From Bradymonadia bacterium (lineage in GTDB: Bacteria > Myxococcota_A > Bradymonadia > UBA7976 > UBA1532), in assembly GCA_046290225.1 (NCBI GenBank), contig JBKAGE010000057.1, forward strand, positions 1 to 63,659: 63,659 bases of DNA, written 5' to 3'. Position 1 is the stretch's first letter, and each line of letters opens with the position of its first letter. Made by a program: the position numbers. This document shows positions 42,801 to 45,800 of the stretch, piece by piece.

Positions 42801-45800
42801 GACGTGTGGATGGGTGGGGTCGAGGCCGGCGATGTATTTTTGCTGTGCTCCGACGGCCTCTCCGGCATGATCACCGATGCGCAGATCTCCGAGATCCTGA
42901 GCGCGCACAATGAGCCCGAGGCGGCCTGTGACATGCTCGTCGAAGCTGCCAACACCGCCGGGGGCAAAGACAACATCACCACCGTGGTGGTGCGCGTCGA
43001 AGAGGCCTGAGGCCTACTCCACCGCCACGATCACGCCAGCACCCACGGTGCGGCTGCCCTCTCTCAGGGCGAAGCGGCTGCCCACCTCGAGACCCACCGG
43101 GCGGCGAAGCTCGAAGTCCAGCGTGGCCCGATCCCCAGGGTTGATCCGACCAGACTCACCGCTCGAAGTGTCCGCCACCGACAGGATGGTGCCAGTGACG
43201 TCCGTGGTGCCGAAGTAGAACTGCGGCTGGTAGCCTACAGCGAAGGGCTTGGTGCGGCCCCCCTCTTTGGCAGAGAGCGCGTAGAACTCCGCGCGCCCCT
43301 TGGCGTGAGGCTTCACCGAGCCTCGGGCGGCGAGCATCTGGCCTCGGGCCACCTCGTCGCGACCAAGCCCGCGGAGCAGCAGCCCCACGTTCATGCCCGC
43401 CTCCACCTGAGTCACGTTCCGGCGGAACGCCTGCGTGCCGGTGATGACCACCTTGCGCAGAGGATCGTCCGGATCAGTGAGCCCGACGATCTCCACCTCG
43501 TCGCCCACACGGGCGATGCCTCGGCTGACGCGGCCAGTGACCACCGTGCCTCGACCGGAGATGGTCATGACATCTTCGATGGGCATCATGAAGGCCCCCT
43601 CGATGTCACGGACCGGATCAGGGATGTGGCTGTCGAGGGCCTCGACCAGAGCATCGATACATGCCAGGGCCTCGGCACCGTGATCGCCCGACTGCACCGC
43701 CTCGAGGGCCTTCAGGGCCGAGCCCTTGATCATGGGGCTGCCACCAAAGCCGTGCATCTCCAACAGCTCGGCGGTCTCCAGCTCCACGAGCTCGAGCAGC
43801 TCCGGATCGGAGATGTCGACCTTGTTGATGAACACAACCACGTGGCTCACACCCACCTGGCGGGCGAGAAGTACGTGCTCCCGGGTCTGGTCCTGAGGCC
43901 CCTGAGAGCCATCGACGAGCAAGATCGCACCGTCCATCTGAGCGGCGCCGGTGATCATGTTCTTGATGTAGTCCGCGTGGCCAGGGCAGTCGATGTGGGC
44001 ATAGTGACGCCCCTCGGAGACATACTCCACATGGGTGGCGTTGATGGTGATGCCCCGAGCCTTCTCTTCTGGCGCTCGGTCAATTTGATCGAATGCCACC
44101 GCTGCACCGCCATGGCGGACCGCCTGCACTGCAGTGATCGCTGCAGTGAGGGTGGTCTTGCCGTGATCGACGTGACCGATGGTACCGACGTTGACATGGA
44201 TGCGCTTCATGGCGGCTTCCTTTCTCTGATCCCACACTGAGGGATCTCAGATGGCCGGTTGGGTTCGAGTCGTGCAGCCGGCCGCTGCAGGTTGGAAGCG
44301 TATCCACCATTGGATACACCTCTGAAACTGTCTTTATATAGATGTGACTATCGCGTGCCATCGACTGATGGTGCGCGAGCCAGATGATGGATGCCATCTC
44401 TCATCTGGTGACTTCAGGGCCTCGACACGGGGTCGAGATCGAGGCCAGAAAATGAAAAACCCGCCGTCGGTCAAGCCGAGGGCGGGTTCGTCAGAATCCT
44501 GATTTTATAAGGATTCTAGCCGAGTCCACCCCCCTCGGGGTCGAGCAACAAGTCGCTCGACGACAACAACGACACTGACAGCAACTGCGAAGCGCAGAGG
44601 CACTGGTCGACAAGGGTGGAGAAGCGGCGGTACATGTTCTGGCACACCTTTTTCGAGTGAACAGTGAGGACTGTAATCACATGCACTGAGTGCGTCAATA
44701 CATTTTTCTGAGAGACTGTCTCGGAGGTGCTTTCAGAGGCAGGCAGCCATGGCTGTGCTTGGGTGCTCAGGCAGGTTGTTCAGTGGCCTCAGTGGGGTTC
44801 TCCGGGGGATTGAAGAAAGCCCAGGTGGTGCCCACCACGAGGTAGAACAGGCACAGGAAGAACATGTACTCCGGCAGGAACTGCAGCGGGCCCGCCACGT
44901 ACACGAAGACGATGTTGGCGATCTGGCCATAGTGGGCGAGCTTGTTCTTGCGGGGCTTCAGCTTGGGCAGACGGACATTGCTCACCTCAAGCACGCCACC
45001 CACCACCAGCAGACCCGGCAACACCTTCACCCAAATCGGATCCGTCGTGTGGATCGAGATGGTCAGGTAGTAGGTGGCGATGATGGCCCCGATGAGGGTG
45101 GTGGGGATCCCATAGAAGATCTTGTCGCCTCCAGGCGGCTCGCTCACGTTGAATCGGGCAAGACGAGCGGAGACCGCAACGACGAAGGCACCACCTGCAA
45201 GCAGGAGCAGCACCTCGTTGGTGGGATCCTGGAAGGCGGGCATGTCTCTGAGGCGGAAGACCACCAGAGCTGCGGGGGCGATGCCGAAGGACACGAAGTC
45301 GGCAAAAGAATCGAACTGGACCCCGAACTCGCTGCTGGCGTTGAACAGCCGAGCAGCGCTGCCATCGAGCTTGTCGAGCAGCACACCCCACAGAATCATC
45401 CAGGCGGCGAGGGTGAAGTTACCCGATGTAGAGCAAGCCACCGAGGCCAGCCCAAAGAGCATGGATAATGCCGTAAAGCTGTTGGGGATCAGGTATTTGG
45501 CGTTGGATTGCATGGGCGTTCCCTTCGGCGACCGGGGCTGTGACATCACGGGGATTCACAGGCCTCCGGAGGCAGACACAAGCGTCTTAGGCTAATGCTG
45601 GTGAGTGCTGAGTGCAAACCCCAGTGGTTTTTCTTGGTGGGCAGATGACGTTCAGTGTGGTCTCAAGAAGGGGGAGCGCTTACACTATCGTTCATTCTGG
45701 TTGATGCAAAATTACGCATATGCACGGCGCATGATGGAGGCCCGATGTCCCAGTTTCGTACACGTAAACTGCCTTTGGGGCGTTTGCTCGGTTCAGCATT

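Follow-up and report, generated by a model that had tools for sequence, protein, structure and literature searches.

The window analysed here, the 63,659-nt contig C57 (JBKAGE010000057.1) of a Bradymonadia bacterium (assembly GCA_046290225.1), carries a divergent second gene for elongation factor Tu, here called EF-Tu2. We consider it probable (about 0.6) that this gene, a solitary chromosomal copy of an EF-Tu lineage typical of tRNA arrays and huge phages, is controlled by a leader-peptide attenuator and induced together with a spare Leu/Ser/Tyr tRNA array of the same genome.

The EF-Tu2 gene and its surroundings

The EF-Tu2 gene (43014..44210, minus strand) encodes a 398-aa protein of the array/huge-phage-type EF-Tu clade, with an intact GTPase and the three-domain architecture of EF-Tu (Pfam PF00009, E = 5.8e-57; PF03144, E = 9.9e-15; PF03143, E = 2.1e-26). 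Its TIGR00485 score is 527.1 bits, barely above the cut-off of 522.4, compared with 760.6 bits for the housekeeping copy. The genome-wide survey's note had described a second EF-Tu with domains GTP_EFTU+D2+D3 and the NCBIfam name elongation factor Tu at these coordinates, about 57% identical to the housekeeping tuf, and our analysis confirmed this description. The sole other EF-Tu in the 8.58-Mb genome (C78:276842-277984(-)), which lies in the usual Thr-Tyr-Gly-Thr-tuf-Trp context of tRNA genes, was 56.3% identical to EF-Tu2 over 396 aa. Among the 119 database matches listed, the genome's own protein excluded, relatives of EF-Tu2 showed 63-71% identity, the range given before.

The gene stands alone, as the note had it. 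A gene for a PP2C phosphatase converges on it and ends 4 nt past its stop codon, and a CDP-alcohol phosphatidyltransferase gene lies upstream and ends before the promoter. No tRNA gene was found in the whole window; EF-Tu2 here is neither within nor beside an array. The GC3 of the gene is host-like (0.805, genome mean 0.778), which argues against a recent arrival. A second EF-Tu was not found in 27 other genomes of the source family. This genome has 90 tRNA matches compared to 35-57 in 12 other family genomes at least 90% complete, and within the family it alone combines EF-Tu2 with a doubled tRNA set. Searches of the plasmid and phage GenBank collections (tblastn) returned only housekeeping-level matches (≤60%), a large share of them from mis-filed chromosomes. 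A search for raw RNA reads from the source organism found none. Four sequencing runs contained no more than 9% of the words, and mapped reads came mainly from conserved EF-Tu parts of other organisms. A 272-nt DNA contig covering 44336-44607 (8 differences) and a 220-nt RNA-library contig covering 43959-44178 (7 differences) derived from a close relative; because such contigs cannot show starts, ends or levels, they are no evidence of expression or termination.

Anatomy of the leader upstream of EF-Tu2

A sigma-70-like promoter (TTGACG-17 nt-TACAGT, 9/12 consensus matches) lies at 44670..44698 on the minus strand, its -10 box ending 35 nt ahead of the leader ATG. It was the one site found in 42500-45800, against 0.6 expected from shuffles, and no second sigma-70-like promoter was found on the EF-Tu2 strand within this interval. 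The leader ORF, MYRRFSTLVDQCLCASQLLSVSLLSSSDLLLDPEGGGLG (44516..44635, minus strand), has 39 codons followed by TAG, with a putative ribosome-binding site, AAAGGTG, 9-15 nt ahead of its ATG. Its 10 Leu and 7 Ser residues are placed at codons 13-31 and use eight codon types (UUG five times, UCG four times, CUC three times, and UCC, CUU, CUG, UCA and AGC once each). This Leu and Ser content (17/39) was significantly enriched relative to the 14.9% in long ORFs (binomial P = 1.65e-5) and was reached by 0.28% of 17,135 ATG ORFs of 30-50 codons taken from all six frames. UUG accounted for 5 of the 10 Leu codons, compared to a genomic share of 9.8% (P = 1.5e-3).

Four segments can be laid out along the minus strand. 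Segment 1 (CUCCACCCUU, 44612..44621) spans leader codons 5-8 and pairs with segment 2 in the predicted minimum-free-energy fold of the untranslated full-length leader. Segment 2 (CCGAGGGGGGUGG, 44526..44538), in the Pro-Glu-Gly-Gly-Gly codons, is the candidate 5' strand of an antiterminator and is complementary to the 5' arm of the terminator. The AU-rich mini hairpin AGAAUCCU...AGGAUUCU (44493..44517) begins in the stop codon and would form the tip of the antiterminator helix. The intrinsic terminator, CCCGCCCUCGG-cuuga-CCGACGGCGGG (segments 3 and 4) followed by U5 (44455..44486), has a predicted stability of -18 to -20.6 kcal/mol; its hairpin occupies 44486-44460 and the U5 tract 44459-44455, 249 nt ahead of the EF-Tu2 start codon. 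A simple scan missed it because of an internal mismatch in the hairpin. The promoter-like boxes, the leader with its Leu and Ser counts, the G-rich Glu-Gly-Gly-Gly codons complementary to the terminator arm and a terminator about 245 nt ahead of the start had all been proposed earlier, and each was recovered here.

Between terminator and gene lies a 244-nt spacer (44211..44454, minus strand) that is predicted by folding to hold at least five further hairpins and ends in AAGGAAG before the EF-Tu2 start. Its GC content is 55%, below the 65% of the window, and folding of the complete 466-nt 5' region gave z = -6.2. A second control layer, either another promoter or a regulator, could reside in this spacer. 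Rfam searches of 43900-45000 (E up to 10) gave only chance-level matches, the best being rnk_pseudo, whose 17 bits fall far short of its gathering score of 55 (E = 5.7). T-box and known Rfam leader families were rejected for the EF-Tu2 leader, as there was no T-box match and no family above its gathering score. The word GGTGTATC, which occurs in the spacers of C57, C42 and C34, was dropped as a candidate shared operator because the genome contains it 303 times.

Predicted behaviour of the switch

The duplex between segment 2 and the terminator arm was predicted at -21.9 kcal/mol, while other windows of the region averaged -6.0 and reached -10.9 at best; 3/500 shuffles attained the observed value. 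Equilibrium folds with a masked ribosome were set aside because pairing of segments 1 and 2 around the ribosome was judged physically doubtful, and 3'-side folds were used instead. The results predicted an antiterminator of -29 to -46 kcal/mol with the ribosomal A site no further than codon 29; the antiterminator was predicted for stalls with the A site at codons 19-29, and a ribosome on the stop codon gave the terminator only. A ribosome-free transcript ending at segment 3 was already predicted to fold as antiterminator, so the 'off' state would depend on kinetics or translation. The full anatomy supports a four-segment ribosome-mediated attenuator, with an antiterminator modelled in silico.

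In the mechanism that we propose, transcription would start about 28 nt ahead of the leader ORF (about 44663). A ribosome that translates the leader as far as UAG would cover the G-rich segment 2 together with the stop-codon hairpin; with segment 2 covered, the terminator would form and transcription would end 249 nt before EF-Tu2. A ribosome lingering on the Leu/Ser codons 13-29 would leave segment 2 free to pair with the terminator 5' arm, and RNA polymerase would then continue into EF-Tu2.

Spare tRNA units with matching leaders

A leader of like type precedes five spare-tRNA units in this genome, located on C20 (Val/Arg/Lys/Ile), C37 (Leu/Ser/Tyr), C42 (Gln/Glu/Asp/Phe), C79 (Thr/Gly/Ala) and C77, where the unit is a spare tRNA-Trp whose leader has two adjacent Trp codons. 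The genome's own trp leader (C79:227115-227017, with WWWW) shows the same layout. The earlier statement that the EF-Tu2 leader is built like the tRNA-array and trp leaders thus holds for all five units and the trp leader. A leader of this type, rich in His/Asp/Gln/Asn/Glu codons, also lies upstream of an Rnl-type RNA ligase gene. An AU-rich mini hairpin after the stop codon is also present in the C20, C42 and C79 array leaders.

The amino acids of the unit itself make up 36-59% of each leader of the four arrays, compared to 8-19% for the sets of other units; the tRNA-Trp leader is marked by its two adjacent Trp codons. The EF-Tu2 leader is 47% Leu/Ser/Tyr and groups with the leader of the Leu/Ser/Tyr array (59%), and its eight Leu/Ser codon types can all be read with the seven Leu/Ser anticodons found in the array. 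Because the leader reads all seven of these anticodon classes, EF-Tu2 should come on with the Leu/Ser/Tyr array. Co-induction of this kind would bring the spare tRNAs, EF-Tu2 and probably the RNA ligase together as a back-up decoding kit. In the six Leu/Ser/Tyr array tRNAs examined, the cloverleaves are of the ordinary 7/5 form and the discriminator bases are canonical. A shared origin of the array tRNAs with the arrays of two other Myxococcota genomes (G217 and G189) was not readable, as identity to those arrays was 53-83% against 57-84% to this genome's own housekeeping isoacceptors.

Leaders before other EF-Tu2 genes

The build of promoter, short ORF and terminator recurs before EF-Tu2 in other families. 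At 13 of the 24 distinct clade loci for which upstream DNA was available, a promoter-proximal ORF of 18-42 codons was followed by a strong hairpin 14-48 nt beyond its end, and no such leader was found at the other 11. The hairpin word CCCCCTCCGG..AGGGGG occurred at 11 places in 16 genomes, 7 of them directly upstream of EF-Tu2. When the antiterminator test was applied to 12 leaders, the result was clear in 4 (≤27/500 shuffles) and indifferent in 5, and 3 failed (loci L119, L121 and L158). No leader was found before the phage EF-Tu copies at 18 loci, and the search for leader-like ORFs within phage arrays gave only 4 weak candidates.

Mean Ser content of the 12 other leaders was 16.4%, compared to 13.3% for randomly drawn short ORFs from these loci (P = 0.075), and some orthologous leaders are rich in Thr or Ala/Pro instead of Leu/Ser. 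Conservation of the Leu/Ser bias among orthologous leaders is not supported by these sequences. Anatomy, recurrence and matched leaders support the proposed Leu/Ser-decoding attenuator, which would be induced together with the array, but the bias is not shared by the orthologous leaders. A survey of 65 flanking ORFs from 23 loci found no conserved protein neighbour of EF-Tu2 with one exception, the CDP-alcohol phosphatidyltransferase gene that lies upstream both in the window and at L114.

An EF-Tu lineage associated with tRNA arrays

We compared the clade with 41 and, in a second tree, 14 housekeeping EF-Tu sequences from many phyla. A branch with SH-aLRT 100 splits the EF-Tu2 clade from housekeeping EF-Tu, that of the same genome included, and neither tree placed EF-Tu2 with the housekeeping copies of its lineage. 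The array/huge-phage-type clade, as delimited in this analysis, comprised 138 members, which differed from 104 housekeeping sequences by the diagnostic changes V104L, A107G, D109Q, M112Q, E259Q, M260A, D/E272M, R333G and A367G (E. coli numbering). R333G was present in 137/138 members. The window EF-Tu2 carries all seven of L104, G107, Q109, Q112, Q259, G333 and G367, and the diagnostic states are common to 18 IMG/VR sequences (G333 in 17/18). By sequence, EF-Tu2 belongs to a lineage that stands apart from housekeeping EF-Tu in all phyla and is common to huge-phage-type contigs and scattered bacteria. This previously unseparated lineage, its fixed changes and its position in arrays are new here.

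The P-loop, T61, D80, H84, NKxD and SAL are kept in 135-138/138 clade members. Likewise, K24, T25, T61, D80, H84, N135, K136, D138, S173 and A174 are all found in the window EF-Tu2 and in 137-138/138 of the clade. The tRNA contacts K89, N90, R288, R318, Q329, T338 and E378 are conserved in 135-138/138, and the amino-acid pocket (F218, D216, D272) and the tRNA-backbone contacts H319/T320 are variable in the clade and fixed in housekeeping EF-Tu. Tyr160 is absent from 118/138 members (Y160H/Q), the window EF-Tu2 having Y160H. Of the putative resistance positions compared, the window EF-Tu2 is changed at two (R333G and Y160H) and unchanged at L120, Q124, G316, Q329, A375, E378, R230, G257 and G275. 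We take position 333 to be the site where R333C gives pulvomycin resistance in E. coli EF-Tu, and position 160 that where Y160N/D/C gives kirromycin resistance; E259Q, M260A and D272M presumably lie in the tRNA 3'-end pocket, the binding place of GE2270A.

EF-Tu2 lies within arrays of 35-37 tRNAs in G217 and G189. From 27 IMG/VR loci fetched, 18 were checked, and 18/18 had 1-19 same-strand tRNAs within 4 kb of the clade EF-Tu. The viral status of these records rests on IMG/VR classification and a CheckV completeness of 63-92%; Pfam sheath and terminase models each matched in 1/5 records, the terminase below cut-off. Arrays holding a clade EF-Tu carry tRNAs of all classes and for all amino acids. 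These sequence data support a link of the clade EF-Tu to spare tRNAs in general, which the survey's note had based only on the shared leader type and its Leu/Ser bias and which now extends to the arrays of two Myxococcota and 18/18 IMG/VR contigs. The note had also raised the matter of leaders and spare tRNAs in relatives: leaders are present at 13/24 loci and arrays in G217 and G189, but 7/15 EF-Tu2-bearing Myxococcota have ordinary tRNA counts (43-48), so EF-Tu2 is not tied to spare tRNAs everywhere.

Discussion

Leader-peptide transcription attenuators control the trp, his, leu, thr and ilv operons and, in pheM-pheST, a tRNA synthetase. The EF-Tu2 leader resembles them in its promoter, its short ORF with clustered regulatory codons and the mutual exclusion of antiterminator and terminator, and also in the position of its stop codon, where a ribosome finishing translation would mask the antiterminator strand. 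Unlike them, it would control an elongation factor rather than a biosynthetic enzyme or a synthetase and gauge two amino acids through eight codon types, and it matches no Rfam family. The survey's note had expected such a control of an elongation factor to be new. In the literature searched, we found no report of an EF-Tu under a leader peptide or of an EF-Tu in tRNA arrays, but pheM-pheST is a precedent for leader-peptide attenuation of a translation-apparatus gene. The E. coli tufB operon (thrU-tyrU-glyT-thrT-tufB), in which EF-Tu is co-transcribed behind tRNA genes, has the context of the housekeeping tuf of this genome; it differs from EF-Tu2 as a housekeeping factor behind four housekeeping tRNAs, under growth-rate control and without a leader peptide. 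Streptomyces has a divergent second EF-Tu, EF-Tu3, about 65% identical.

This EF-Tu3 (actEFTu2) is described as an inessential, divergent, stress-induced second EF-Tu, and a title cited in the same source reports its resistance to three EF-Tu inhibitor classes (PMC4342817). It has been described in Actinobacteria, where it is under stringent control, whereas a leader peptide would control EF-Tu2 here (PMC4342817). The novelty is further narrowed by published phage EF-Tu: huge phages are described with as many as 67 tRNAs along with EF-G, EF-Tu and EF-Ts, proposed to sustain translation during infection, and main-text passages of that study describe neither a separate EF-Tu clade nor its in-array position, fixed substitutions or attenuated chromosomal copies (PMC7162821). 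The trn operon of Anabaena belongs to the L-arrays of supernumerary tRNA genes and is induced by translational stress, a result that its authors present as the first clue to the regulation of tRNA genes (PMC8421152). As described there, it likewise forms an inducible, normally silent second tRNA set that has spread horizontally, lies in a neighbourhood rich in translation genes and shares its regulation with an RNA ligase, rtcB in Anabaena and Rnl-type here (PMC8421152). Its control, however, lies in direct repeats at the promoter, presumably bound by a repressor, and the paper mentions no EF-Tu neighbour, leader or attenuation (PMC8421152). Here, leader peptides would control each unit separately, and an EF-Tu is part of the set.

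The same attenuator might instead sense translation stress in general, with EF-Tu2 as a drug- or toxin-insensitive spare, an overlapping explanation that differs in the purpose of EF-Tu2 and that we consider rather unlikely. Modelled on ribosome-stalling leaders of resistance genes and on Streptomyces EF-Tu3, it holds that an agent emptying the A site (an antibiotic blocking ternary-complex formation, a competitor toxin, or a phage or defence factor against EF-Tu or tRNAs) would stall the leader ribosome and so switch on an EF-Tu which that agent cannot bind. The clade changes R333G, Y160H/Q, E259Q, M260A and D272M lie at or next to putative resistance sites, but the clade is wild-type at L120, Q124, G316, Q329, A375, E378, R230, G275 and mostly G257. 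The orthologous leaders favour differing amino acids, which suits a sensor of stalling in general better than one that gauges Leu/Ser; against this, the leader composition in the window matches one particular spare array and the sister leaders are clearly amino-acid specific. Export or drug-modifying genes adjoin some copies (an ABC exporter and FLQE3 permease at L005, MFS and TetR at L002, APH at L120), yet the 65 flanking ORFs of 23 loci include neither an antibiotic gene cluster nor a conserved neighbour. Starvation induction, as described for actEFTu2, would also suit a stress-induced spare (PMC4342817).

The idea that EF-Tu2 is tuned to the odd class II tRNAs of the spare array, put forward in the survey's note, is not supported, and we regard it as improbable. 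Nematode mitochondrial EF-Tu2, which serves Ser-tRNAs only, would be the model for such a Leu/Ser/Tyr carrier. The match of the leader (47% Leu/Ser/Tyr) to the array leader (59%), the seven anticodons that read its eight codon types, Ser runs in the leaders of L115, L119, L120 and L124, and the variability of F218, D216, D272 and H319/T320, fixed in housekeeping EF-Tu, point towards it. However, clade-bearing arrays hold tRNAs for all amino acids, the six array tRNAs have normal cloverleaves and discriminator bases, Q329, T338 and E378, which contact the T stem, have stayed the same, Ser enrichment in other leaders is not significant (P = 0.075), and several other EF-Tu2-bearing Myxococcota have ordinary tRNA counts. 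A tRNA-Ser or tRNA-Tyr adjoins the gene at L157, L173, L175, L176, L184 and L195, but class II nearest neighbours at about 8/20 loci equal our estimate of chance expectation. Finally, the ORF and terminator might form an independent small transcript or a leaky barrier, with EF-Tu2 driven from the spacer and no ribosome-sensing switch. The long (244 nt), strongly structured spacer of 55% GC against 65%, the absence of the build at 11/24 loci and a weak or absent antiterminator in 3/12 leaders would agree with this. We nevertheless find it very improbable: that strand has no second sigma-70-like promoter in 42500-45800, the order promoter-ORF-terminator-gene is found again in several families, the hairpin word hardly occurs outside this position, and complementarity between segment 2 and the terminator arm would be useless to an independent small RNA.

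Under the preferred reading, an EF-Tu2 attenuated and induced with the Leu/Ser/Tyr array, the signal is more likely slow delivery than amino-acid lack, because extra EF-Tu cannot cure amino-acid starvation. Our guess is that EF-Tu2 would have its advantage over the housekeeping factor in sustaining aminoacyl-tRNA delivery after damage to, or inhibition of, tRNAs or the normal EF-Tu. A wider proposal, which we offer tentatively and below even odds, is a modular, self-diagnosing back-up kit of huge-phage ancestry that answers damage to the decoding machinery, since extra tRNA, ligase or EF-Tu cannot cure starvation for amino acids. It would comprise about 40 spare tRNAs sorted by amino acid, each unit behind a leader of its own codons, the Rnl-type ligase and EF-Tu2. 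The damage might come from tRNA-cutting toxins or EF-Tu inhibitors of competitors, prey or phages, and the fixed changes of EF-Tu2 (R333G, E259Q, D109Q and others) might make it insensitive to the agent that disables the normal factor.

The regulation of individual bacterial tRNA genes and translation factors is largely unknown, and the EF-Tu2 locus offers a simple, testable cis-element through which the ribosome itself would decide when a second EF-Tu is made. The analysis also defines an EF-Tu lineage that appears to move between huge phages and bacteria along with spare tRNA arrays. The observation that phages carry EF-Tu thereby becomes the concrete question of what EF-Tu2 can do or resist beyond the host factor, and the small set of substitutions that the clade conserves in the pocket for the tRNA 3' end and where the domains meet offers targets for biochemistry and may point to natural resistance to EF-Tu inhibitors.

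The EF-Tu2 protein and its lineage

The second EF-Tu gene, EF-Tu2 (43014-44210, minus strand), is an open 398-codon gene encoding three EF-Tu domains. Its genome (G000; 8.58 Mb, 64.4% GC, 83 contigs, of which the window is C57) contains a single other EF-Tu gene, C78:276842-277984, which is 56.3% identical to EF-Tu2 and has the usual flanks (tRNA-Thr/Tyr/Gly/Thr-tuf-tRNA-Trp). The GC3 of EF-Tu2 (0.805) is typical of the genome (0.778 ± 0.076), and the gene is therefore no fresh import. The protein keeps its GTPase motifs and most of the residues that contact tRNA. EF-Tu2 cleared the cut-off of the NCBIfam equivalog model by a mere 5 bits, whereas the housekeeping copy had a margin of 238 bits. 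A large protein search returned 119 relatives at 63-71% identity among the 120 matches listed, and all 119 of these listed relatives were closer to EF-Tu2 than is the genome's own tuf. When 78 sequences were placed in a maximum-likelihood tree, EF-Tu2 and its relatives were separated from the 41 housekeeping EF-Tu sequences, which were drawn from many phyla, by a branch with an SH-aLRT value of 100. EF-Tu2 thus belongs to a lineage apart from the housekeeping factors, and its sequence predicts a functional EF-Tu.

We then compared 138 members of this lineage (hereafter the clade) with 104 housekeeping sequences, using E. coli numbering. The changes V104L, A107G, D109Q, M112Q, E259Q, M260A, D/E272M, F304G and A367G were fixed or nearly so in the clade, R333G was present in 137 of the 138 members, and Tyr160 was lost in 118. 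Residues F218, D216, H319 and T320 varied within the clade, whereas they were invariant in housekeeping factors. In structural work on the Thermus ternary complex, the terminal adenosine is stacked against E259, the amino-acid pocket is lined by F218, D216 and N273, and the tRNA backbone is contacted by H319 and T320; in genetic work, R333 and Y160 are sites of pulvomycin and kirromycin resistance. On this background, the clade's changes would fall at the binding sites for the ends of aminoacyl-tRNAs and for EF-Tu inhibitors.

The leader upstream of EF-Tu2

The genome-wide survey's note had described the EF-Tu2 gene with a promoter, a Leu/Ser-rich ORF and a terminator before it, and this description was correct in every particular checked. 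On the minus strand, the promoter TTGACG-17-TACAGT (44698-44670) is followed by a 39-codon ORF with 10 Leu and 7 Ser (44635-44516), a small AU-rich hairpin whose first bases belong to the stop codon of this ORF, a GC hairpin (44486-44460) with U5 serving as terminator, and a structured spacer of 244 nt (44211-44454) reaching from the terminator to the EF-Tu2 start codon. The Leu+Ser load of the ORF was far above chance (P = 1.65e-5 against a proteome proxy) and was matched by 0.28% of 17,135 short ORFs; five of the ten Leu codons are the rare UUG. The 466-nt 5' region folded much better than its shuffles (z = -6.2). Within the spacer we found at least five more hairpins (e.g., GGCCUCGA..UCGAGGCC and GUGUAUCCA..UGGAUACGC) and an AT-rich stretch, CATCTATATAAAGACAG; the spacer gave no family match, and the leader element matched no curated family. 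Directly upstream of the leader lies a CDP-alcohol phosphatidyltransferase gene (44767-45549, minus strand), as it also does at L114:25-699 in G318, a genome from another family. No other neighbour was common to different EF-Tu2 loci.

In the modelled folds, the leader has the layout of a four-segment attenuator: segment 1 (CUCCACCC, leader codons 5-8), segment 2 (CCGAGGGGGGUGG, codons 33-37), and segments 3 and 4, the two terminator arms. With the A site at codons 19-29 and the transcript extending to segment 3, a long helix of segments 2 and 3 was predicted (-29 to -46 kcal/mol), capped by the stop-codon hairpin. With the ribosome on the stop codon, the terminator alone was left (-23.5 kcal/mol), and in the untranslated full-length leader segment 1 was predicted to pair with segment 2 while the terminator formed. 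Only 3 of 500 shuffles equalled the duplex of segments 2 and 3 (-21.9 kcal/mol), and the best of the other windows in this region came to -10.9. According to this model, the Leu/Ser codons fill exactly the stretch where a stalled ribosome would leave segment 2 free. A ribosome stalled there would thus allow segment 2 to pair with segment 3 and the terminator to be avoided; one at the stop codon would let the terminator alone form.

Recurrence of the leader and association with tRNA arrays

Upstream DNA was available for 24 distinct clade loci (15 Myxococcota genomes, 2 other genome records, 6 metagenome contigs and the window). Thirteen showed a promoter-proximal ORF of 18-42 codons and, 14-48 nt further on, a strong hairpin followed by U-rich sequence; the other 11 lacked this build, and in two of them the gene lies inside a tRNA array. 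The hairpin is often nearly one word, GCCCCCTCCGG...GAGGGGGC, which occurred at 11 places in 16 genomes, seven of them directly before EF-Tu2. Of 12 leaders tested, 4 had clear antiterminator complementarity and 3 had none, with an indifferent result for the remaining 5. Leu was favoured in the leaders of the window, L116, L140 and L146, Ser runs occurred in those of L115, L119, L120 and L124, Thr was favoured at L082 and L158, and Ala/Pro at L113; with the window left out, Ser enrichment across leaders was not significant (P = 0.075). Conservation between EF-Tu2 leaders extends to their architecture but not to a codon theme. No own leader was found before the phage (IMG/VR) copies at 18 loci.

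The 27 genomes examined from the window's family yielded no second EF-Tu. Of 400 other genomes sampled from the phylum, 15 had a clade member, and these belong to at least nine families. At L125 (G217:C14:18000-31500) and L126 (G189:C1:853000-868000), the gene is embedded near one end of arrays of 35-37 tRNAs, which cover all 20 amino acids and contain a small membrane-protein ORF. In G189, the first tRNA of the array is preceded by an ORF of 52 codons and by a strong hairpin. An IMG/VR search returned 27 loci, 18 of which carried the clade's diagnostic residues (L173-L187, L192, L195 and L196). In these, the EF-Tu2-type gene sits in the middle of a loose same-strand tRNA array with gaps of 100-700 nt, and all 18 have 1-19 same-strand tRNA genes within 4 kb. 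Their contigs (6-619 kb) range from 35 to 65% GC; the module is therefore carried by elements whose hosts differ widely. Viral and bacterial clade members were interleaved in a tree of 63 sequences, with at least seven label changes forced by well-supported branches, and housekeeping factors stood apart (SH-aLRT 100). In these genomes and contigs, the clade travels with tRNA arrays. A misfit to the spare-tRNA link is that 7 of the 15 other Myxococcota carriers had 43-48 tRNA matches, an ordinary set.

Leaders of the same type elsewhere in the genome

G000 has 96 tRNA genes by ARAGORN and 90 Rfam matches, about twice the 35-57 Rfam matches of 12 family genomes. The surplus sits in arrays sorted by amino acid: Val/Arg/Lys/Ile (C20:227-1560, minus strand), Leu/Ser/Tyr (C37:77269-79340, minus), Gln/Glu/Asp/Phe (C42:92366-93845, minus) and Thr/Gly/Ala (C79:72099-73700, minus), with a lone tRNA-Trp unit at C77:152230-152589 (plus). 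Before each unit stand a promoter, then a short ORF, then a terminator. Leaders of the spare units consist to 36-59% of their own unit's amino acids and to 8-19% of the others' (41-59% vs 9-19% for the four arrays); the EF-Tu2 leader groups with the Leu/Ser/Tyr class (47%). The 26-codon ORF of the Trp unit, MTALFHTDDHGRWWPMTRSGGAFSTC, has two adjacent Trp codons before its terminator, and the second tRNA-Trp (71 nt) follows about 100 nt past it; its housekeeping counterpart is the neighbour of tuf on C78. This genome's classical trp operon leader (WWWW) is laid out in the same way. Six array tRNAs that we read were structurally normal, and the array tRNAs were no closer to those of the G217/G189 arrays than to their own housekeeping counterparts. 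ARAGORN also made three odd calls: a tRNA of class II size (86 nt) that has anticodon UGU and lies within the Leu/Ser/Tyr array (C37:77832-77917, minus), a 73-nt tRNA with amber anticodon CUA (C14:27995-28067, minus) and a 98-nt tRNA-Arg(UCG) (C37:220911-221008, plus).

A further copy of the hairpin word (C34:31142-31168, minus strand) lies upstream of a gene whose 363-aa product combines an OB fold of phage type (PF21189) with an RNA-ligase domain (PF09414). This region (C34:30600-31450, minus; L163:263-1800, minus) has a promoter, a GTG-start ORF of about 51 codons (VILSNSLTTTAHLTK...SQHDQDHRQPQENGLWGCAKS) and the terminator CCCCCTCCGG..GAGGGGG+U5 before this gene. The His/Asp/Gln/Asn/Glu codons of this leader are those read by tRNAs that anticodon nucleases preferentially attack. 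This locus could be a tRNA-repair arm of the EF-Tu2/spare-tRNA regulon. Separately, a 21-codon ORF at C35:247099-247034 (minus), MKAFSVTPSVRHAFWRFFFCS, contains five Phe codons, three of them consecutive, and is trailed by a hairpin with a run of U; it is possibly a Phe-sensing leader.

Discussion

Our best reading, to which we assign a probability of roughly 0.6, is ribosome-mediated attenuation of a phage-type spare EF-Tu that would be switched on together with the spare Leu/Ser/Tyr array. Amino-acid starvation is not cured by making additional EF-Tu, tRNA or ligase, and the sensible trigger of the switch would therefore be slow delivery from damaged or inhibited tRNAs or EF-Tu. Such a trigger brings this reading close to an 'inducible insensitive target' model, in which EF-Tu2 would be an attenuator-induced spare insensitive to inhibitors; a single resistant EF-Tu copy is reported to be enough against drugs that block ternary-complex formation (PMC6685928). 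We consider that model possible and clearly the less probable of the two. The survey's further proposal, a delivery factor specialised for class II tRNAs, is unlikely, as the G217/G189 arrays around the clade gene serve every amino acid. That the short ORF and terminator form an independent small transcript seems very improbable.

By analogy, the EF-Tu2 leader is predicted to work like the trp, his and pheST leaders. The G000 system is similar to the L-array regulon of Anabaena, which is induced by stress and also has a co-regulated RNA ligase, but it uses a different control principle and adds EF-Tu (PMC8421152). EF-Tu2 is comparable in kind to Streptomyces EF-Tu3 as a divergent and, by prediction, conditionally expressed spare (PMC4342817). 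Huge phages are reported to encode EF-Tu and many tRNAs (PMC7162821). In the literature searched, we found no report of phage EF-Tu as a distinct lineage, within tRNA arrays, or under attenuator control in bacterial chromosomes. The new parts are the EF-Tu member and its phage-array lineage.
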